Shown piece after piece: positions 19,629-31,268 of a stretch of DNA of 32,000 bases. Source of the DNA: an uncultured archaeon (GTDB lineage Archaea; Asgardarchaeota; Thorarchaeia; Thorarchaeales; Thorarchaeaceae); assembly GCA_964648855.1 (NCBI GenBank), contig CAZYLT010000009.1, positions 64,868 through 96,867 of the forward strand, in the 5' to 3' direction. A program made the position numbers and the translations under genes. Each line of letters starts with the position of its first letter. Within the stretch, counting starts at the first letter, position 1. The notes under the pieces are model-generated. The model had not been told where the DNA came from. It saw only the letters and a list, made by a program, of their open reading frames with translations, and ran no database searches.

Positions 19629-21083
19629 ATGCCAGAAGATAACGAAAGAAAGCGGTCAAAAAACGACCAAGACAGAATAGTCGATGACATGCTATCAGAA
19701 CTTGGCGTTGATGATGCAATGCGGCAAGAGCTTGTCGAATCGGGGCGAATGTCCAGTGATGTCGTAAAAGTTGCAACTGCAGAACAGATTCGCAGACAGA
19801 TGGAGATCGAAAAGAGCAGAGAACGACTCAGAGAGAATCTGAATGTTGTCGAACGCGATATGATGAAAATTGAGAATTTTATCGACCGCGTAGAAAGCGA
19901 TTTGGTACCAGTTGTACTGTCTTTCCTGGTGCGATTGAAAGGTGACCTTGTAGGTCTAAAGACTGACATCGTCGGAAGAAGCAAGCGACGCGCTAAAACA
20001 AATCTGCAGGCCAACTTTGTCGAAACCACGGTAAAATCCATTTGCGATGACGAGTTCTCGGATATTGAAGAAACTCTAACTTCAGGAATGTCTGCTCCGA
20101 TTTTGGAGAAGATACGTGATTTAACAGATATATTCAAAGAATCGGTTCGAACTCTTAATGAAGAGTTCTCCGATCTTAAGGCTTCTATTGATGACTTTGG
20201 GCAGAGAGCAGGAACAGAAATCGAGTTCCTCTCAAAAGAAGTGAGCATGAAGCCCAAGGTCGATGTTCCAAAAGAAGTGAAAGAGAGAATCGAAGAACAG
20301 CAGCGTCAATTGCGACGTCTGAGGAACGAAGTCGAATTGCTCAATGATAAGTTAGAAAATCGAGAAGCAGAAATTACTGCTCTTCAAACGAATCTTGCCG
20401 CAACTAAGGCAAGAAATGAGAATCTTGAAAATGCCATCCGGAAGGCGAAGGGGACACCAGCTGCGGATGTAGAAATGGTAGCTAATCTCCGTAAGGGCGT
20501 AAAGGCTCTGGAAACCGAAAAAGAACTACTTGATGATGAAATCGCCCAATTGACAGGAGCCCAGAAGCAGTCAGAGAAGACTATTTCTGATCTCAGGGAT
20601 AAACTTGCAAAATCAGAGCTGAGTGAACAGGAACTCCAAAATCAACTATCATCTGTTCAATCCGAGCTTGAAAAGGCATCTAAGAGATTCTCCGAGATTG
20701 ATGAGCTTCGGTCGATTGTCCGAGATTATGAATCAGGTGACACAATGCGAGAAGCTGAACGATTGAAGTCAGAGTTAGATCGAGAACAGTCGCGAAATCA
20801 ACGCTTGAGCGTGGAGTTGGAAAAGGCAGAAAATGAAGCTAAAACCACAGGTGCTCGTTTGAATGGATATTTGGACCTTATGGCTTCCTCAGAGAAGACC
20901 AAAGCATTCCTGATGGTCGAGGATAATAAAGAAATGGAAATTCGGGAGATTGCCCGTTCGCTTGGAGTTTCACCCGCTATCGTTTCACAGTGGGCTAACG
21001 ATTTTGTCGATATGGGTATAGCCCATATAAGAGACAACACAACATTAGTTCTGGCGGATGAACTGATCCAAGACTCGGAATAG
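19629..21083 (+). CDS. Long coiled-coil protein with a C-terminal winged-helix/HTH domain
   Basis: E/K/L-rich heptads over most of the length, no Walker A/B motif, C-terminal MEIREIARSLGVSPAIVSQWANDFVDMGIAHI. Confidence 0.75.
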   Translation: MPEDNERKRSKNDQDRIVDDMLSELGVDDAMRQELVESGRMSSDVVKVATAEQIRRQMEIEKSRERLRENLNVVERDMMKIENFIDRVESDLVPVVLSFLVRLKGDLVGLKTDIVGRSKRRAKTNLQANFVETTVKSICDDEFSDIEETLTSGMSAPILEKIRDLTDIFKESVRTLNEEFSDLKASIDDFGQRAGTEIEFLSKEVSMKPKVDVPKEVKERIEEQQRQLRRLRNEVELLNDKLENREAEITALQTNLAATKARNENLENAIRKAKGTPAADVEMVANLRKGVKALETEKELLDDEIAQLTGAQKQSEKTISDLRDKLAKSELSEQELQNQLSSVQSELEKASKRFSEIDELRSIVRDYESGDTMREAERLKSELDREQSRNQRLSVELEKAENEAKTTGARLNGYLDLMASSEKTKAFLMVEDNKEMEIREIARSLGVSPAIVSQWANDFVDMGIAHIRDNTTLVLADELIQDSE

Positions 21084-21672: not shown

Positions 21673-22719
21673 ATGAAGGAAGCACAGCTGTATTCGGAAA
21701 TACCTGGCGGAGTAAGATGTGACCTCTGTGCACGAAGATGTGTAATTCATGAAGGTGAAACGGGATTTTGCAGAGTGAGGCATCTAGATGATGGCATTCT
21801 CCGCACTGAAGTATATGGGCTAATTGATGGGATGGCAGCGGATCCCGTGGAGAAGAAGCCCCTATTTCATTTCGCACCTGGGTCTCATACTTTCTCAATC
21901 AGCACATCATCATGCAATTTCAGGTGCAAATTCTGCCTCAACTATCACAGCGCTCATCGAGAACACCCCATTGGTAGAAAGTTTTCACCCAAAGAAATTG
22001 TGAAGATGGCCAAAGACCATGACTGTCAGGGGATAACGTATACCTATACTGAACCGACAATCTTCATGGAAATAGCGCACGATACAGCAAAAATAGCTCA
22101 CAAAGAAGGAATGTACAATACATTTGTGACAAATGGATACCTAACACAGGAGGCTATCGACTACATATCTCCGTATCTAGACGCGGCATCTGTCAATTTC
22201 AAAGGTAGTGGCAACAAGGAATTCTATCAGAACTATATGGAAGTTCCAAAGGTTAAGCCCATTTTTGATGCCATGAACTACATGAAAGAAAAAGGCATCT
22301 TCATTGAGATAACAAATCTGATTATCCCCGAAATTGGCGACTTCAAAGAAGACACAAGAAGACTTGCAGCTTGGACAGCAAAGAATCTTGGTTCCAAGAC
22401 ACCATTTCATCTTACTGCTTTCTCTCCAACGTACAAGATAACCCACCTCCCCCGAACACCCGCTAACATGATAGAATCACACATTGACATTGTCAAAGAC
22501 GAAGGTTTGGAGTATGTCTACTCTGGCAATATTCCCGGCCATAATTATGAAAACACCATATGCCCCGGTTGTGGCTTTAAAGCCGTTGAGCGATATTCCG
22601 TATTTCTAAAAAGCAACAATTTGAACGATGACGGAAGATGTCCGAAATGCGACACAAATCTCGGTATCGCAGGAACAAAATGGATGCAGATTGGCCCTGG
22701 GTCATCTCGATTCTTTTGA
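21673..22719 (+). CDS. amrS: AmmeMemoRadiSam system radical SAM enzyme
   Basis: CDLCARRC...GFCRVR, DPVEKKPLFHF.PG, CNFRCKFC, YTYTEPTI, YVYSGN, CPGC and CPKC motifs. Confidence 0.92.
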   Translation: MKEAQLYSEIPGGVRCDLCARRCVIHEGETGFCRVRHLDDGILRTEVYGLIDGMAADPVEKKPLFHFAPGSHTFSISTSSCNFRCKFCLNYHSAHREHPIGRKFSPKEIVKMAKDHDCQGITYTYTEPTIFMEIAHDTAKIAHKEGMYNTFVTNGYLTQEAIDYISPYLDAASVNFKGSGNKEFYQNYMEVPKVKPIFDAMNYMKEKGIFIEITNLIIPEIGDFKEDTRRLAAWTAKNLGSKTPFHLTAFSPTYKITHLPRTPANMIESHIDIVKDEGLEYVYSGNIPGHNYENTICPGCGFKAVERYSVFLKSNNLNDDGRCPKCDTNLGIAGTKWMQIGPGSSRFF

Positions 22720-22729
22720 GGCTTCATAG

Positions 22730-23617
22730 ATGCATATTCTAGATATGGGTTGGCGTACCGATAATGGAGAATTCCAACCGTATCTATACTTGCAAAATAG
22801 TCATGGCAAACGAGAGGAGCTATCTCTTGAGCCAGGACGAGATATCCGTTGGAGATTCACAGGCCCTCGAAGATGCATTGGGTACTGGGATGATAATCAA
22901 TATCACCCCTGTCCAAATCATGCAGTTCTAAGAAAGAACCAAATTCGCTGCAGAACCTGTTCTACGCTCAGTAAATATTCTCCGTGTATTCAATGTCGAG
23001 GTAATACTTGTCTCGCTAACGAGAAACGAAGAAAGGAATGCATGGAAACTCCCTATGCCGTGTATCTCGCTCTATTTGGAAATGATTTCATCAAAGTGGG
23101 CGTTTCCACTCTCAGTAGGCTCTCACTGCGTTGGGTAGAACAGGGGGCAGATTACGGTGCGATGATTGCTGAAGTTGAAGGGGGACTGGATGCCCGAAAG
23201 ATTGAGAGAGTGGTAGCCAAGAGAGCTGACATTTCTGACTCAATTCACCAAACACGAAAACAGGCGATTATGGCGCGTAGATTGGCAGAAAAGGATGCAA
23301 AAGCTAAGATTCTTGAAGTGATGGACGATATAGGGATTCCTAATCTTGAGCAAAGTCCCGAGATAGTCGACCTATCGCCATACTATGGTTTTGAAACACC
23401 GCCCTCAGATCCACTGAGATGGCCGGAAAACAATGAAATGATACACAATTCAACTTTGGATGGAAAAATTCTCGGAGTGAAAGGAAGTAATATCTTGGTT
23501 GAGAGGGGAGCTATTCTCTTTGTTGCTGACCTGCGTCGAGTGCTAGGATACGATCTTGCTCGCGCACAGTTATCAGCTCAAAGCATCAAGCAATCAGGGT
23601 TGGAGAACTTCCTCTGA
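22730..23617 (+). CDS. DUF2797 domain protein
   Basis: RRCIGYW...CP...CxxC...CxxC, VYLA, IKVGVS, RWVEQGA and GVKG motifs. Confidence 0.82.
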   Translation: MHILDMGWRTDNGEFQPYLYLQNSHGKREELSLEPGRDIRWRFTGPRRCIGYWDDNQYHPCPNHAVLRKNQIRCRTCSTLSKYSPCIQCRGNTCLANEKRRKECMETPYAVYLALFGNDFIKVGVSTLSRLSLRWVEQGADYGAMIAEVEGGLDARKIERVVAKRADISDSIHQTRKQAIMARRLAEKDAKAKILEVMDDIGIPNLEQSPEIVDLSPYYGFETPPSDPLRWPENNEMIHNSTLDGKILGVKGSNILVERGAILFVADLRRVLGYDLARAQLSAQSIKQSGLENFL

Positions 23618-23655: not shown

Positions 23656-24501
23656 ATGGTTTCGCAGGAAGAAAGCGAGAAGGTGCGGTATATCAGCCTA
23701 GTAAGAAAGGCGGGAGGAGAGCCAATTTTGGGAATACCGTATCGCTCTATGAGTGTTGATCCCGACTTAGTAGCTAGCTTTGTCCTTGCCATTATCATCT
23801 TTGAGAATAGAGACCTCAAGACCTTCACAAAGGAAGGATATGTAGTAGTAATCGAAGAGGGGAAACATGTCGTTGGCTTACTGATTGTGGATAAAGTTGA
23901 AGATGATGAACCATATAGAAGAAACCTGAAGCGGATTATTGCAGAGTTCGAGGAGAAGTATAATGATCTTCTCAATAACTGGAAGGGTGATATACGACCA
24001 TTTAGGGAATATGCATTAGACATATTGAGCATCTACCCGTATTCTGATATTGACTTTGAGTTGGTTCCGCGTCTGTTGAAGCGTAGCAAAGCTACTCCTG
24101 ATCAGAAGGTAAAGATACCATGGAGTGTTGGCAAAACAGATGAGAAAGTCCAAGAAATTCTGGGCTTTATCAACGGAAAGAGGTCAATATTGGAGATAAT
24201 GGAGGCATCAAAATACGACCAAAATGAGATAGGAGCCATCTTCTCAATGCTCTATAGATACAAATGGATATCATTGAGTAGAAAATTGGAATCGGACTCC
24301 AAAATTGTCAAGGTTTCCGATCCACCCCGATTCCTGATAGGAGTCTATGGCAACCAGCTTGAACACATTGTTGAGTTGTGTGACGGAACTCGGAGTCTCT
24401 CAGATATCTGTGATGAGCTTCCCTACAGCATGGAAGTCGTCAAAACCCTCGCGAAAAACCTTATAGATGCAGGAGTCCTAAAAATCAATGGCACAAAGTA
24501 G
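23656..24501 (+). CDS. Longin-domain plus tandem winged-helix protein (NPRL2/NPRL3-like), paralog 1
   Basis: N-terminal longin pattern (YISLV..GG.PI...DPDLVASFVLAI..F...GYVVVIE.G..VVGLLIVD...L..I..EFE.KY...W.GD...F), then VP...W...D...EILGFINGKRSI.EI...LYRYKWI and LCDGTRSLSDIC winged helices. Confidence 0.75.
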   Translation: MVSQEESEKVRYISLVRKAGGEPILGIPYRSMSVDPDLVASFVLAIIIFENRDLKTFTKEGYVVVIEEGKHVVGLLIVDKVEDDEPYRRNLKRIIAEFEEKYNDLLNNWKGDIRPFREYALDILSIYPYSDIDFELVPRLLKRSKATPDQKVKIPWSVGKTDEKVQEILGFINGKRSILEIMEASKYDQNEIGAIFSMLYRYKWISLSRKLESDSKIVKVSDPPRFLIGVYGNQLEHIVELCDGTRSLSDICDELPYSMEVVKTLAKNLIDAGVLKINGTK

Positions 24502-24548
24502 GAAAGGGTCTTATACCCCGTCAGAGTTCTACATTGGAGCTGTATATC

Positions 24549-25412
24549 GTGGCAGATTCAAATACGCTTGCCCAGGAGGGAAATATCGAGATGGGACTTG
24601 ATGTTTCAAAGGTTCGATACATATCATTGATTAGACTAGAGGGTGGTGAATCTATCCTGAATTTGCCCTATGCTTCCATGACAGTGGATCCCGATCTGAT
24701 CGCTGGTTTTGTCACTGCTGTTATCATATTCGCCAAGACCCCCATCCGAACCATTCGAAAAGCAGCCTATGATATCTTGATAGAAGTGGGCGAAACTGTC
24801 CTAGTGTTGCTAGTTGCAGATCCTGTTGCGGATGAAAAACCCTATCGAAAGAAGCTGAAGCAGATATTGGAACTTGTTGAAGAAAAGCATGGTGCGAAAC
24901 TGGAGAAATTCGAAGGAGATGTACGCAGGTTCAGGGAATTTGCCCTCACCATTCTCAAAGAGTTTCCGTACGATAGACCAGATATATCTATGGTACCTTT
25001 CAAGAAAAAGGGAAAGACAATTCCTTTTCGGGTGGGAACAACCGACAAGGCTCTAGAAAAGATTGAGAACTTCATTAATGGCAAGCGTACTGTGTCAGAG
25101 ATTATGGACCTGATTGATCTTTCCGATGATGAAGTTGTTGCACTGCTTTCTGCTTTGGAAAAATATGGGTGGATTGGTTATAAGCGGAGAATGAGTGAAA
25201 CCGACATGCTTGTAACTGCTGATTGTTCGGATACTGCTCTCGAACGAATTCGGTCTCAATACGGGCCACCTGTCGACGATTTGCTTGCAGCATTTGAAAA
25301 CCCAACAAGAATAGACGAGGTTCTTACAGCACTGAAATATGACAAGAATGCACTCTGGTTCCTGTTGAACATGCTGACGGACGCTAATTGCCTTAAGATG
25401 GAATCACACTAA
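24549..25412 (+). CDS. Longin-domain plus tandem winged-helix protein (NPRL2/NPRL3-like), paralog 2
   Basis: Collinear with paralog 1 (KVRYISL, GGE.IL, VDPDL.A.FV.A.IIF, DE.PYR, GD.R.FRE.AL, FINGKR, L..Y.WI). Start uncertain: TTG 24534, GTG 24549 or ATG 24591. A TTATA box lies at 24511. Confidence 0.75.
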   Translation: MADSNTLAQEGNIEMGLDVSKVRYISLIRLEGGESILNLPYASMTVDPDLIAGFVTAVIIFAKTPIRTIRKAAYDILIEVGETVLVLLVADPVADEKPYRKKLKQILELVEEKHGAKLEKFEGDVRRFREFALTILKEFPYDRPDISMVPFKKKGKTIPFRVGTTDKALEKIENFINGKRTVSEIMDLIDLSDDEVVALLSALEKYGWIGYKRRMSETDMLVTADCSDTALERIRSQYGPPVDDLLAAFENPTRIDEVLTALKYDKNALWFLLNMLTDANCLKMESH

Positions 25413-26234
25413 CTAGAGAATGTCATCTTGACCGGGTATTCCTACTACATCGCTTCTACATTGATAACAGTGGTAGAATTGCGGAATGTGTTGTGATGCT
25501 TTTTTCCGAATATCGTTTAGTTGTTTTTTCGTTGGTGGCAAAAGGGACTTGAGACGTCCTGATGGAATCAGAGGTATTACGTTGTGAAGAGTTGCTCCAT
25601 GCTCTGAAATTCGTTTAGCTATTCGAACCATTTCATTCTCGTTTATTTGTGGAATGAGAACCGTATTTACCTTAACAAGAATCCCTGCTGCCGAGGCTTT
25701 CCTTATACCGATGAGTTGTTTGTTGAGAATATAGCTTCCTAGTTTCTTGTCAACTGCTACACGCCCATCCATCTCAATCCATTCGTAGATTCTACTTGCT
25801 GTGAGAGGTTTTGCTGCATGAATGCTTACGGAAATAGTTGAGGGCTCTATCTCCCGCAAAGCAGGCATATTTTCTTCTAACAGTGTCCCATTAGTACTCA
25901 GGCATATTTTGGCATCTTGATGTAGTTGCCTGATTCGATGTAACGTTTCCATTGCGTTCTTGCTTGCCAATGGATCTCCAGGTCCCGAAACTGCAATAAT
26001 GCGTAGATTCTTTCGCCTGCTTAGTTCCAGTTTGAGACGCGTGATAGCTTCTGATGGTTTCATTATCTGTGCTGCTGCCCCAGGGCGACCTGCTCCACAA
26101 CATCCAAAGTTTTGTTCACAGAAAATGCATTTTATGTTGCATCTATCCGCCACTGGAAGATGTATGCGCTGCCATAGATTTCCTCTAGAATTAGACCAAC
26201 AAGGATGATGTTCCACAATGGAAGATGAAGGCAT
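25413..26234 (-). CDS. NifB-like radical SAM protein (SAM domain only)
   Basis: HPC, RIHLPVA, CNIKCIFC, RPG, SGPGDPL, CLSTNG, VKVNTVLIP.IN and CYQCRSDVVG motifs. Confidence 0.85.
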   Translation of the reverse strand: MPSSSIVEHHPCWSNSRGNLWQRIHLPVADRCNIKCIFCEQNFGCCGAGRPGAAAQIMKPSEAITRLKLELSRRKNLRIIAVSGPGDPLASKNAMETLHRIRQLHQDAKICLSTNGTLLEENMPALREIEPSTISVSIHAAKPLTASRIYEWIEMDGRVAVDKKLGSYILNKQLIGIRKASAAGILVKVNTVLIPQINENEMVRIAKRISEHGATLHNVIPLIPSGRLKSLLPPTKKQLNDIRKKASQHIPQFYHCYQCRSDVVGIPGQDDIL

Positions 26235-26244
26235 AATCTAACTC

Positions 26245-26637
26245 TCAAACAAAGTGCTGAAGGAGCCTTCCTGCCTCTCTAGCAGTGATTTTGGCGTCAT
26301 TGAAGACCAGCCCAAGCATGGCGTTTTCCGGAGCTGTAACAGTCAACAGATACTCACCTGTTATGGCTATCGTAAGGGTCAGGCCCATGGTCCCCTGAAT
26401 TATTATGGATTTGAGTTTTCCCTGATTAAGTTCTCTGACTGTCTGTTCTCCAACTGCTTGTATGCTTGCCACCATAGCCGCAACGGAAACCTCTTCGACG
26501 CCTGCATGGAAATGGCTAACAAGGGGGAGCCCTTCCACCGAGAATATTGCTGCACCGAGAATAGGCGACCTGTTGTTCAGACCCCTGAGTAGCTGCTTAA
26601 GTTCCGCAAGTTCATCAGTCGCAGTTTGTGATTCCAA
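26245..26637 (-). CDS. Roadblock/LC7 (MglB/LAMTOR-like) domain protein
   Basis: L..L...SPILGAAIFSVEGLPL...VAAMVASI...GE....EL.QG.L..IIIQG..G.....A...LLTV......LGLVF pattern. Likely TTG start at 26637 behind GAGGGG. Confidence 0.92.
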   Translation of the reverse strand: MESQTATDELAELKQLLRGLNNRSPILGAAIFSVEGLPLVSHFHAGVEEVSVAAMVASIQAVGEQTVRELNQGKLKSIIIQGTMGLTLTIAITGEYLLTVTAPENAMLGLVFNDAKITAREAGRLLQHFV

Positions 26638-26729
26638 GTCAAGCCCCTCACTTAGGCACATGCAGACATGCATATCTGCTTATAATAATAGCTAGAATCA
26701 AAATCAAAGATAAATATACTTCACGAGTA

Positions 26730-27790: not shown

Positions 27791-28468
27791 TTATTCTCCG
27801 AAAATATCCTTCACCAATCTGACTTCTTGAGTTTCTTCGTCGTATTCAACCAAATCCTCATTTCTGAGGTCATGTATTGCTTTCGTAGCCAACGCCGGTA
27901 CAATTCCAGTGCTGTCCACAATGTGTTTTCTGGTAATACTGGCTCCCGTGTTATGGAGGGTGTAAAGAACCCTTGCATGTGGCTTTCCACCGAAGACGGT
28001 TTCAATCAAAGTAATGTAAATTGATAGCAGGTCACTCACGTCAACCTTCTCTTCAAGTTTCTCTTTTTCAGCAGCAGCATCTCTGTACAACTCAGAAACT
28101 CTCTGTAGTCTATCGGTTATCTGATCCATTTCTGCCTTGAGCTCATCACGTTCTTTGATGATGGCACCAATCTCATCTTGTTTCTCGGATTCAAGTGTCG
28201 AAATCTTCTCAGATTTCTCTTCCAGCTCGGCTTTCTTGCTCTGTAGGGATTGTTTAGTTTCTTGTAGTTCGGACCTGACAGTGCTTAGCTCTTCTTCTGT
28301 TTGTTCGAGTTTCTCCTGTAGATTCCACGTTTTTTCTTCTGCCTCTCTACGAGCTGTTCTGAGTTCTTCGCTCTTTTGAAGTAGTTCATCTCGCTCATCC
28401 AGAAGAGTGGTAGCTTTCTCTTTCAGCTCGTCAAGCTCAGAAAGAATTGTTTCCCGTTCTATTGACAA
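27791..28468 (-). CDS. Coiled-coil protein with a C-terminal winged-helix domain
   Basis: About 140 aa of E/K/L heptads, then KPHARVLYTLH...ITRKHIVDSTGIVPALATKAIHDLRNEDLVEYD. TTG start with a GGAGAG RBS. Confidence 0.8.
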   Translation of the reverse strand: MSIERETILSELDELKEKATTLLDERDELLQKSEELRTARREAEEKTWNLQEKLEQTEEELSTVRSELQETKQSLQSKKAELEEKSEKISTLESEKQDEIGAIIKERDELKAEMDQITDRLQRVSELYRDAAAEKEKLEEKVDVSDLLSIYITLIETVFGGKPHARVLYTLHNTGASITRKHIVDSTGIVPALATKAIHDLRNEDLVEYDEETQEVRLVKDIFGE

Positions 28469-28515: not shown

Positions 28516-29664
28516 TCACATCAAGTTGATATCAAAAGCCGCAGCTTTTGTCTTGATATAACGGATATACATTTTCTTCAATTCTCTTAGCGGCAGCTCA
28601 AATGCCTTGAATGCCTCCAGCTCGCCCTTTCTCCTCTTCTTCAGAATTTCTTCATTTTCACGTGTTAAAATCGGATCCTCTCCAATTGCAGGAATGCTAC
28701 GGTTCTGCTTTGCACATCGGATGTCTGACTTGGACATTTTTTCTAGAGAATGCTCAACATCTCTTAGCATGCCATTCTTTGACCAGAAATCCTCTGAGGT
28801 CAATCCAATAAGCTTGGCATCTGGGGCAGATAGTCCGCGAATGTTTGAGAGTTCTATAGAATTACTCTTGATTGTTGAGAATATCCGCAACGACCAGGGG
28901 GACATATCAACAAGAACCAGAATAGGAACCTCTTGTTGAGATAGGCGTCTAATCCAGGCTCTCATATTACGACCTGGTTGACCAAAAAGTGCCCCCACAC
29001 CTATATCCAATTCTTCAGGGACGCCCAACTCTATTAGATTCCTTGCCATTGCTTCTTTTTCCACAAACACTGCTGCGTTAATGTTAAGATCATGGATTGT
29101 AACTTCAAACGGCCTGGATGAGATAAACCAACCATATTCCCCAGCTGCCGCGCAGTTGATTCTCTTCTTTGATAGGTCAGATAGGGTCACATCCCCATAA
29201 AATGTACCCTTCGGAGAACTGACTACTCCAAACTCCTCCCTTGGAACAGAGTCACCATCGACCCTTAATATTCTCTCACAAAGGTTCACAAGTCGGTTGG
29301 TTTCATTTTGGTCTTTGATATTGAAGACATCCTGTACTCGTTTCACTTTGTGCATGTAATAGAAATCACGTAATGACATTGACATGCCCTGATCCAAATG
29401 CTCTTTGAACCTTGAGAGGGCATAGATGAGAGACGCTATGGTCTTGGCGCTATCTACTCTTCTGCCATCCAGAAATGATGGTTTTTCATCAATAGGCAGA
29501 TATCCCTTCTCCTGTTCAAAACGAATATTCCTCTTCGAAGAACCAAAGTACCCGATCTCAGGAAACTCACCATCTTCAATGGTTTCTGCGATAACTTCGA
29601 GGACGTTGTCAATCAGGCTCCCAACCTTGTCAGTTGAAATACTTGTTCTAGAACCGGCTGCCAT
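28516..29664 (-). CDS. top6A: DNA topoisomerase VI subunit A (Spo11 family), divergent
   Basis: SLRDFYY (catalytic Tyr), Q.ET, REEFGV...PKG, FVEKEAM, GQP....R and KGELEAF motifs. The Toprim DxD reads DMS. The start overlaps the top6B stop by 1 nt. Confidence 0.88.
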   Translation of the reverse strand: MAAGSRTSISTDKVGSLIDNVLEVIAETIEDGEFPEIGYFGSSKRNIRFEQEKGYLPIDEKPSFLDGRRVDSAKTIASLIYALSRFKEHLDQGMSMSLRDFYYMHKVKRVQDVFNIKDQNETNRLVNLCERILRVDGDSVPREEFGVVSSPKGTFYGDVTLSDLSKKRINCAAAGEYGWFISSRPFEVTIHDLNINAAVFVEKEAMARNLIELGVPEELDIGVGALFGQPGRNMRAWIRRLSQQEVPILVLVDMSPWSLRIFSTIKSNSIELSNIRGLSAPDAKLIGLTSEDFWSKNGMLRDVEHSLEKMSKSDIRCAKQNRSIPAIGEDPILTRENEEILKKRRKGELEAFKAFELPLRELKKMYIRYIKTKAAAFDINLM

Positions 29665-31196
29665 CAGTTGCTCCCCCGGTCAAATCCTAACGCTGTCTGT
29701 ATATCTCTTCCGAGTGAACGTGAGAGCGTATTTGTTATGAACGTATAATATAGTGCCAGTTTGTTTTCTCTCTTCTTTTGTTTTCTCACTCTGTTTTTCC
29801 TTCGCACTTTGGTCGCGATGGTTCTAAGGCAGTCCTTGAATCCAAGTTCAATTTCCCTTCTCACGATATCCACATCGGCGATGTATTCCTTTCCGACCGT
29901 CTTGTACGGTATTTTGGTTGAGCAAATATGAACGAAGAAGGCAAGAGGATCGTCATTCGATAAGCCGTAGTGAGTCAAGTTCAGCTCCTTCAGAACCCTA
30001 CTCGAAACGTCAGCACTTTCATCGTATAAGAGGGGAATCCGATTTGCAAATCTATATAATCCAATTCCTCGTTCCAACTCCCCGCCATAGGCGACACCTG
30101 TTTCTATTATGAACGGATGCCCCTCATACGAATTCGGATTCCTAGTTGCAAGAGAAACATACTCAGGACCTAGTCGTTTCATACCGGCTCGCATGACATC
30201 TTCCTTTGCAGGTGAAAGGCAATCAGCGGATGGTGCATAGAATTCTCCGAAGGCAGAAATTCTTTCCATGAGTCTGACCAAATCATCATCATCAAGATCT
30301 TCTGGCCGCGTGTCATTTTCAAAGCCTGCGAACTGTAGAAATGACTCTGCAGTAGCTGGACCAACTCGCTGAAAGGAATTCTTCAGGAATGTTTCAATGC
30401 TATTAGACCTGGTTGATGTAATCATGGTTTTTAGCATTTCAACATCAATGCCTTTGGGATGAGGCTTCGTTTCTTTGGCGGCATCCGGCAAGATGTCGAT
30501 TATTCGATGATATGAAAGAATTTCGTCATCGGGTGTTGCAAAATCTATTGAAGCATATGGAACAATTAGACTCGTCTGATTGAAATACTCGTGAATTCTA
30601 CGTTTGCTTCTGAACCAGTCTCCTTGTAGAAAATAAGAGACTGTTGTGCCATGTTCACTCGCTTGTTTTGGTAGTCTTTTCTTTTCCAAAACAACCGGTT
30701 CATTTCTCTCTATGTCCAATTTCATTGTCAGCATATTGGAGTACGGCTTCCCTGCGATGGATGAGTTAACTGTGATGGGTTTCTGTGTTGTAATTTGACC
30801 ATAGAGCAGAGCTAGGCTGCCCCCAAGGCCAAATGTACCCCGACTCTGCTTCAGAACAAATTTTGTCCCCGTAAGCATCTTTCCAATAAGTTTGGGTACA
30901 TCTTCTAACTCAATTCCTCCACCATTGTCGCTGACAACTAACTTGAAGGCTCTGGGCGTGGAAGGAATTCCTGTGGAATCATCTTGATTGTCTGCATATG
31001 TCAGTGAAACACTAATTTCTGGAAGGACACCAATCTCTTCACATGCGTCTAGGCTGTTTTCCAGTAGCTCTCTTACTGAAACGTATAGAGACCGAGCAGG
31101 GTTATCAAACCCTGCAATAGCTCTGTTTCGATAGAACCACGCTGAAACTGAGAGCTCGACAATATCCTGCTTCGTTTCACCAATGTCTAGTGTCAT
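29664..31196 (-). CDS. top6B: DNA topoisomerase VI subunit B
   Basis: GHKL motifs ELLENSLDA, DNGGGI, QSRGTFGLG and HGT; also KPHPKG, H2TH RVG, RFANRIPLLY and KIPYKTVGKE. Start reassigned to ATG 31196. Confidence 0.95.
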   Translation of the reverse strand: MTLDIGETKQDIVELSVSAWFYRNRAIAGFDNPARSLYVSVRELLENSLDACEEIGVLPEISVSLTYADNQDDSTGIPSTPRAFKLVVSDNGGGIELEDVPKLIGKMLTGTKFVLKQSRGTFGLGGSLALLYGQITTQKPITVNSSIAGKPYSNMLTMKLDIERNEPVVLEKKRLPKQASEHGTTVSYFLQGDWFRSKRRIHEYFNQTSLIVPYASIDFATPDDEILSYHRIIDILPDAAKETKPHPKGIDVEMLKTMITSTRSNSIETFLKNSFQRVGPATAESFLQFAGFENDTRPEDLDDDDLVRLMERISAFGEFYAPSADCLSPAKEDVMRAGMKRLGPEYVSLATRNPNSYEGHPFIIETGVAYGGELERGIGLYRFANRIPLLYDESADVSSRVLKELNLTHYGLSNDDPLAFFVHICSTKIPYKTVGKEYIADVDIVRREIELGFKDCLRTIATKVRRKNRVRKQKKRENKLALYYTFITNTLSRSLGRDIQTALGFDRGSN

Positions 31197-31268
31197 CAAG
31201 AAACACCGTTCTTCAGCAAGAAGATAGCATGAAGTCACTATGAACACAAGTATTACGTCAACAACATT

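Follow-up and report, generated by a model that had tools for sequence, protein, structure and literature searches.

A 32,000-nucleotide stretch of the genome of an uncultured thorarchaeon (GenBank assembly GCA_964648855.1, contig CAZYLT010000009.1, positions 64,868 to 96,867 of the forward strand; hereafter the window, and the reference for all coordinates given without a locus prefix) carries two neighbouring open reading frames on the same strand, which encode the proteins here called P1 and P2. P1 (23656-24501, +) is an NPRL2-like protein of 281 amino acids. Its AlphaFold2 model places a longin domain at residues ~10-130 (23683-24045, +) and a C-terminal domain of tandem winged helices at residues 131-281 (24046-24498, +). 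The paralogous P2 (24591-25412, +) likewise consists of a longin domain and two winged helices, and is ~273 amino acids long if translation starts at the ATG at 24591. Its frame stays open back to a TTG at 24534 (24534-25412, 292 amino acids); P2 orthologs are 273-275 amino acids long, and their first residue matches the methionine encoded at 24591. P1 and P2 are 38% identical over 272 amino acids (BLASTP, E 8e-61), well above chance. A preliminary description of the locus had read it as two collinear adjacent paralogs, in each of which two winged helices follow a longin domain, and the frames, the identity between them and the modelled domains bear this out.

Both are small cytosolic proteins, and the genome that encodes them (3.1 Mb) is 94.6% complete. 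Their closest named relatives are almost all labelled Candidatus Thorarchaeota; P1 orthologs with 64-70% identity are common across Thorarchaeota, where they are annotated as hypothetical proteins, and in many metagenome-assembled genomes (MAGs) the orthologs of P1 and P2 carry adjacent locus tags. In one relative from the P1 ortholog set the stop and start of the pair overlap. The isoelectric point (pI) of each whole protein is 5.4-5.5, and that of the P2 C-terminal domain is 5.1. The first winged helix of P1, at pI 9.0, is basic. The overall acidity of P1 and P2 argues against DNA binding.

Structural similarity to NPRL2 and NPRL3

The paralogous proteins NPRL2 and NPRL3, and Npr2 and Npr3 in yeast, form the core of GATOR1 and SEACIT, the GTPase-activating protein (GAP) for RagA/Gtr1. 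The model of P1, built from a 31-row alignment (predicted local distance difference test, pLDDT, 84.8; predicted template modelling score, pTM, 0.77), has a β-β-α-β-β-β-α-α topology over residues 10-126, and its winged helices span 159-219 and 225-277. When whole P1 is compared with the PDB using Foldseek, ranks 1-13 are all NPRL2, NPRL3, Npr2 or Npr3 chains from structures of GATOR1 and the SEA complex (E 1.4e-7 to 5e-5, 317-369 columns), with plain longins next at 1e-4. The Foldseek alignment is local and spans domains.

The C-terminal half of P1 folded alone (residues 131-281, pLDDT 89.8) gives a similar picture. NPRL2/3-type chains make up 12 of its 14 top Foldseek matches (E 1.4e-4), and in rigid alignment (VIA) the top eight entries are from GATOR1 or SEACIT, with Z 11.1-12.8 and a root-mean-square deviation (rmsd) of 2.9-4.1 Å over 139-142 of 151 residues; the segments matched are 168-329 in human NPRL2, 254-407 in NPRL3 and 238-488 in yeast Npr2. 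All other PDB folds score Z 9.3 or less, the best unrelated one (Z 9.3) over 71 residues; FAM91A1 excepted, their matches span a single winged helix (~70 residues). A shape search of the ESM Atlas lists a eukaryotic NPR2 cluster among its matches, and a feature search of the same resource returned archaeal hypothetical clusters only. On these matches together, the NPRL2/NPRL3-like architecture is structurally real. Among solved structures the combination of a longin with a double winged helix is supported as specifically NPRL2/NPRL3-like, for the whole protein and for its C-terminal half alike, and the comparison with GATOR1 structures proposed in the preliminary description thus came out in favour of the resemblance seen there.

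The N-terminal domain of the model superposes rigidly on classic longins, with Sec22b first (Z 15.4, rmsd 2.5 Å, 120 residues), followed by VAMP7, Ykt6, Fuzzy and sigma-adaptins. A longin fold is therefore found as expected, and on the evidence of the model it is of the generic, plain short type that the preliminary description had cautioned about, not specifically of the NPRL2 type.

At the sequence level, membership of NPRL2/NPRL3 is weak. BLASTP aligns P1 162-200 with NPRL2 190-229 (33% identity, E 0.024, a marginal value), a match that includes an IxGxR motif, which opens the first winged helix and lies on the equivalent helix in NPRL2. This recovers the first of two motif alignments given in the preliminary description, and the NPRL2 fragment quoted there proved genuine, being 100% identical to human NPRL2. 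The second pairing, of LCDGTRSLSDIC with LYTGCHSYDEIC (NPRL2 344-355), falls outside the structurally aligned range of NPRL2 (168-329), and the two segments are probably not equivalent. The quoted NPRL2 fragment, of 47 residues, retrieved vertebrate NPRL2 when used as bait, and against the resulting profile, which is shallow and vertebrate-only, hhalign gives probabilities of 45% (E 2.2e-4) and 57.6% (E 1e-4) over one winged helix, aligning winged helix 2 of the archaeal protein with winged helix 1 of NPRL2; with a narrow profile the probability is 0.9%. Searches of PDB sequences with phmmer and with profiles returned hits at chance level and no NPRL chain.

A duplication within the thorarchaeal lineage

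An exhaustive profile search yielded 308 representative clusters of the family. The 151 genomes of the phylum that we sampled include 26 from the window's own thorarchaeal family (f1) and one from its sister family (f2). The tandem P1/P2 pair is present in 25 of the 26 f1 genomes; the single f2 genome has a lone standalone gene, whose product shares 30-31% identity with P1 and with P2 alike and which lies in an equivalent radical SAM-DUF2797-X / Roadblock setting. A pair in f1 and a single copy at the same site in f2 point to a duplication inside the thorarchaeal family that is independent of the eukaryotic split, so the duplication is probably this lineage's own, and not the one that separated NPRL2 from NPRL3. 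Since it appears to be limited to one thorarchaeal family, P1 and P2 would not be the respective counterparts of NPRL2 and NPRL3. A maximum-likelihood tree recovers a P1 clade, a P2 clade and a clade of GTPase fusions, each with strong support; grouping P1 and P2 in one clade is not rejected by an approximately unbiased (AU) test (p-AU 0.31), which is no proof of such a clade.

The longin-module family is multi-copy in this genome. One further paralog (L004:1243-1866, -, contig C7) is a protein of 207 amino acids with a longin and a single winged helix, and another (L005:610-1803, -, contig C1; 397 amino acids) has a longin and a helical/winged-helix extension. Elsewhere, the relatives P0279 and P0355 add a C-terminal V4R domain, a small-molecule-binding module, to the longin and double winged-helix core, a hint that some members of the family sense ligands. 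Ten longer relatives (360-509 amino acids) were considered as eukaryote-like NPRL forms and set aside: none matches NPR2 or NPR3, and their extra length consists of V4R or further winged helix-turn-helix (HTH) domains.

Association of the family with small GTPases

A paralog of 655 amino acids in the same genome (L003:190-2157, contig C3) combines, from the N-terminus, an extension of ~120 amino acids, an Arf/Rag-like GTPase at residues ~121-285 with the motifs GSGGVGKST, WDFAGQ and NKQD and, beyond an acidic linker, an NPRL2-like longin followed by a pair of winged helices. The fused GTPase matches the Arf profile with E 1.3e-17 and Gtr1_RagA with 22.7 bits, barely over the cut-off. Most of the 26 f1 genomes, and the f2 genome as well, have long open frames (about 610-680 amino acids) with the same C-terminal match. 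The N-terminal extension was itself considered as a longin, and this is not established: the hhalign probability is 3.6% (E 0.012), though the alignment is in register.

One same-strand run in a genome from another Asgard family (G007, family f8), in which the open reading frames abut or overlap at their ends, contains a GTPase gene and, two genes on, a longin-winged-helix gene. The GTPase is 39% identical to the fused thorarchaeal one. The run comprises five genes (L015:4091-7858), the products of which are, in order, a 350-amino-acid protein with a weak winged helix, a 275-amino-acid protein with an extension and an Arf-like GTPase, a 179-amino-acid protein, a 302-amino-acid NPRL2-like protein with a longin and two winged helices, and a 156-amino-acid protein; those of 179 and 156 amino acids have no assignable family. 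The run resembles a split version of the thorarchaeal GTPase-longin fusion.

This pattern of fusion in thorarchaea and gene clustering in G007 supports a role for the family in regulating small GTPases, and by analogy with these paralogs P1 and P2 may have such a role as well. The genome encodes at least 24 Arf-profile GTPases. Rag/Gtr GTPase heterodimers carry C-terminal Roadblock domains; the genome's matches to the Gtr1_RagA profile cover the G domain only. Of the matches that exceed the cut-off, every one is in an open frame of 182-197 amino acids except that in the 657-amino-acid frame of the fusion. Another paralog of the fusion, of 639 amino acids (L017:640-2559, contig C12), shares the same 'MIHN...' N-terminal extension and contains the genome's best Arf-profile GTPase; in place of the longin-winged-helix module it has a highly acidic, probably disordered tail of ~350 residues.

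Longin hairpins and putative catalytic residues

Two hairpins of the longin domain bear on possible catalysis. The hairpin between strands 1 and 2 of P1 (23704-23742, +) reads R17-[K/R]-E-G-G-E-P and is invariant in 17 orthologs by column counts, and the corresponding hairpin in P2 orthologs reads R-[L/M/I]-E-G-G-E-S, so that a difference of proline in P1 versus serine in P2 is fixed between the paralogs. In the wider family only the glycine of this hairpin is near-invariant. In catalytic GAP longins a 'GP motif' precedes strand 2, and of the two subunits just the catalytic one has it (PMC12290439); the P1 hairpin occupies the position of that motif, although it reads G-E-P and not a contiguous G-P.

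The loop between strands 4 and 5 of P1 (G69-x-H/Y; 23860-23868, +), flanked in the AlphaFold2 model by strands at 62-68 and 72-79, is the equivalent of the NPRL2 hairpin that carries Arg78. This loop (G-x-H/Y/T) is just three residues long and its middle residue is variable, residue 70 being K, E, D, R or N in P1 orthologs and E, K, A or D in P2 orthologs (column counts). A loop so short, with a variable middle residue, indicates that the canonical arginine finger is absent; the preliminary description was right to see no YSRN-type arginine hairpin of NPRL2 here, and the three-residue loop is common to P1 and P2 orthologs.

Relation to known families

An asCOG-based NPRL2-like family present in most thorarchaeal MAGs has been described by Liu et al. 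(bioRxiv 10.1101/2020.10.19.343400; Nature 2021), who also mention fusions of longins to GTPases and fusions to two-component domains, and who stress that the eukaryotic signature proteins of Asgard archaea have undergone extensive domain shuffling. In later literature the 'NPRL2-like longin domain' serves as a category of eukaryotic signature proteins. P1 and P2 fit this family, which has a longin followed by a small NPRL2-type C-terminal domain and occurs in most Thorarchaeota genomes, the assignment resting on domain plan, structure, ortholog names and distribution. The family is thus already known, and the window adds no new kind of system. In the text consulted, Liu et al. do not describe the tandem pair or the confinement of its duplication to one family, nor that the C-terminal domain superposes rigidly on GATOR1/SEACIT structures, nor that the full module of a longin and two winged helices is fused to, or clustered with, an Arf/Rag-like GTPase. 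What is added here is an NPRL2/3-like C-terminal half, the missing arginine finger, a lineage-specific duplication and a nominated Arf/Rag-like GTPase partner. Among the papers found, none describes binding or activity for the Asgard NPRL2-like family.

FLCN-FNIP, C9orf72-SMCR8 and the Asgard 'FLCN/SMCR8-type' longins (PMC12290439) are likewise longin-based regulators of Rag or Arf GTPases. They share with P1 and P2 a glycine-rich hairpin before strand 2, and the proline found only in P1 recalls the GP that is restricted to their catalytic subunits. In contrast to their GP motif and arginine finger, P1 and P2 have G-E-P and G-E-S and no conserved arginine finger, and a tandem winged helix instead of a DENN domain.

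With NPRL2-NPRL3 and Npr2-Npr3 the proteins have in common the organisation as a paralogous pair, the order of a longin followed by tandem winged helices, the best structural match for both whole P1 and its C-terminal domain, and the IxGxR motif. They differ in that P1 and P2 are about 100-300 residues shorter (in human NPRL2, of 380 residues, the structural match stops at 329), have no Pfam-level match and no arginine in the R78 hairpin, are encoded in a genome without Iml1/DEPDC5, and probably arose by an independent duplication. As the GAP for Rag, GATOR1 links the target of rapamycin complex 1 (TORC1) to amino-acid supply, and its origin bears on that of eukaryotic nutrient signalling and lysosome-associated GTPase control.

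In bacteria, Roadblock, DUF742 winged-helix and small GTPase modules occur in the conservon proteins CvnB, CvnC and CvnD, and in MglB-MglA. The likeness lies in a winged-helix protein (DUF742 hits here are weak) that is associated with Roadblock/longin-fold proteins and Ras-like GTPases; the difference is that in P1 and P2 the winged helices are doubled and fused to the longin, and that all DUF742 scores fall under the cut-off.

Interpretation and alternative explanations

P1 and P2 share their fold and domain order, are paralogs, and are widely conserved as a pair in one thorarchaeal family. The explanation we favour, and consider reasonably probable, is that they belong to the Asgard NPRL2-like family and that the pair, the product of the lineage's own duplication, acts together, likely in regulating a small Arf/Rag-like GTPase. 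The two would most likely form a longin-longin dimer, by analogy with all eukaryotic longin GTPase regulators, and the conservation of the tandem pair and the overlapping stop and start in a relative lend heterodimer formation indirect support; prediction of the P1-P2 complex from a 22-row alignment for each gave ipSAE values of 0.01 and 0.06, where the mark is 0.32, which speaks neither for nor against binding. The resulting platform would bind and regulate a small Arf/Rag-like GTPase, because one paralog carries such a GTPase in the same polypeptide and another is clustered with a related GTPase in a different lineage. Its chemistry would be unlike that of NPRL2, since the hairpin equivalent to that of Arg78 has no conserved arginine. 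Possible roles are those of a scaffold, of a guanine nucleotide exchange factor (GEF), or of a GAP working through another residue, for which the invariant R17 beside the strand 1-2 hairpin, or R88 or R114, would be candidates. The duplication within the thorarchaeal family would then parallel the eukaryotic NPRL2/NPRL3 duplication and not predate it. A bolder version makes P1-P2 an obligate heterodimer that switches an Arf/Rag-like GTPase, as GAP or GEF, without the arginine hairpin, and the family the direct archaeal stock of the GATOR1 core, with heterodimerisation invented twice by independent duplications; this we regard as rather doubtful.

Several results weigh against the explanation that we favour. 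In a six-frame search of the genome at E up to 10, neither NPR2 (PF06218) nor NPR3 (PF03666) from Pfam has a match, nor does IML1 (PF12257; Iml1/DEPDC5). The Pfam matches of P1 are limited to HTH_47 on the second winged helix (26.6 bits, cut-off 27.1) and DUF742 (E 0.0025), with none to NPR2, NPR3 or HTH_NPRL3, and P2 reaches 12.1 bits against HTH_NPRL3 (PF24064; cut-off 27.2 bits, E 0.2). NPR2 is touched by 2 of 23 family members (best E 0.038) and HTH_47 (PF16221) is matched by 13 of the 23 at E up to 1 (best 5.9e-10); in one relative HTH_47 scores 35.5 bits, above the cut-off. DUF742 gives weak hits in five of the 23, and in the G007 gene-cluster protein reaches 26.7 bits against a cut-off of 27, while the second winged helix of P1 scores 31.3 bits against PqqD (NCBIfam TIGR03859, E 1.4e-7; cut-off 46 bits). 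On the winged helices HTH_47, PqqD and DUF742 thus outscore NPR2, an outcome that the preliminary description had named among those that would refute its reading. Nor are NPRL chains among the top 50 rigid matches of the longin domain alone, to which SNARE-type longins are closer. The window contains no GTPase gene, the nearest Arf-like gene lying ~24 kb upstream of it, and the GTPase link holds for paralogs and not for P1 and P2 themselves; the earlier proposal that the pair regulates small GTPases is supported indirectly, by the conserved fusion and the gene cluster of the paralogs. The ortholog alignments of P1 and P2 have no conserved arginine at the hairpin equivalent to that of NPRL2 R78. 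Finally, the maximum-likelihood tree does not settle the order of P1, P2 and the other branches.

Much of this would fit a domain-shuffling look-alike, in which a generic Asgard longin was joined independently to two PqqD/HTH_47-type winged helices and the architecture is convergent; there would be no descent from an NPRL2/NPRL3 ancestor, though action on GTPases would still be possible. The longin best matches Sec22b, VAMP7 and Ykt6 and not NPRL2, the profiles prefer HTH_47, PqqD and DUF742 to NPR2, Pfam NPR2 and NPR3 are silent in the genome, and the hhalign probabilities of just 45-58% come with an offset pairing of winged helices. Extensive shuffling of the domains of Asgard signature proteins, as stressed by Liu et al. 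(10.1101/2020.10.19.343400), is also in line with this explanation. However, the tandem winged-helix unit superposes rigidly and nearly whole (139-142 of 151 residues, Z 11-12.8) on NPRL2, NPRL3 and Npr2 and on no other PDB fold, the domain order is shared, and the IxGxR motif sits at the equivalent helix, so we think convergence unlikely.

The winged helices could instead bind DNA while the longin-like domain senses a ligand or partner, as in many archaeal winged-HTH regulators, making P1 and P2 transcription regulators. Weak matches to TrmB, MarR, IclR, ArsR and AsnC-type HTH domains occur across the family, the first winged helix of P1 is basic, and some relatives carry V4R small-molecule-binding domains. 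These HTH matches are all under curated cut-offs, however, and both proteins are acidic overall, as is P2 in its C-terminal domain; in structure they come closest to the C-terminal domains of NPRL2/3, which do not bind DNA, and paralogs are fused to or clustered with GTPases. A role in transcription is accordingly improbable. We give still less credence to a reading of the pair as peptide-binding accessory proteins akin to PqqD and to the recognition elements (RREs) of ribosomally synthesised and post-translationally modified peptide (RiPP) systems, which would present a substrate to the radical S-adenosylmethionine (SAM) enzyme of the neighbouring radical SAM/DUF2797 genes. It draws on the PqqD match of the second winged helix of P1 (31 bits), on the superposition of the first winged helix on the RiPP recognition elements of MccB, PbtF and TruD/LynD (Z 6.5-8), and on the genomic setting, in which the pair is flanked by an AmmeMemoRadiSam radical SAM gene with DUF2797 on one side and a NifB-like radical SAM gene on the other, the radical SAM-DUF2797-X order being kept in f2. 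Yet the PqqD score is under the 46-bit cut-off, the RRE matches span half the domain and lie 3-6 Z units below those to NPRL2/3, and distant relatives have no radical SAM or DUF2797 neighbours and are instead near or fused to GTPases; synteny inside one order is weak evidence of linkage. To our knowledge, a longin domain is not part of any known RiPP system.

Genomic neighbourhood

Directly upstream of P1, with a gap of 38 nucleotides, lies a DUF2797 gene (22730-23617, +; Pfam E 7e-21), the position of which is kept in the relative from the P1 ortholog set and in f2; it is a conserved neighbour whose functional link to P1 and P2 is not shown. Together with a radical SAM enzyme of the AmmeMemoRadiSam system (TIGR04337, 291 bits) it occupies 21673-23617 on the same strand, with gaps of 10 and 38 nucleotides, and the radical SAM, DUF2797, P1 and P2 genes may form an operon.

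Downstream, a Roadblock/LC7 gene (26245-26673, -; Pfam Robl_LC7 E 1.4e-11) is convergent to P2 at a distance of 0.8 kb, and in f2 a Roadblock gene directly abuts the single NPRL2-like gene. The Roadblock protein as a partner of P1 and P2 is unproven: the gene is kept in f1 and f2, where the synteny of the whole region is conserved anyway, and no Roadblock-family gene was called beside the more distant relatives examined. A NifB-like radical SAM gene (25413-26234, -; TIGR01290, 226 bits, cut-off 343) starts 10 nucleotides after the Roadblock gene, and none is present between the NPRL2-like and Roadblock genes in f2.

Two long coiled-coil proteins with a terminal winged helix/HTH flank the region (19629-21083, + and 27791-28468, -), the first of which has a counterpart of 482 amino acids at the same upstream position in f2 (L014:1166-2614). 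Genes for the A and B subunits of topoisomerase VI follow at 28516-31247 (-), and the synteny between topoisomerase VI and the longin pair is kept in the relative from the P1 ortholog set (L007).

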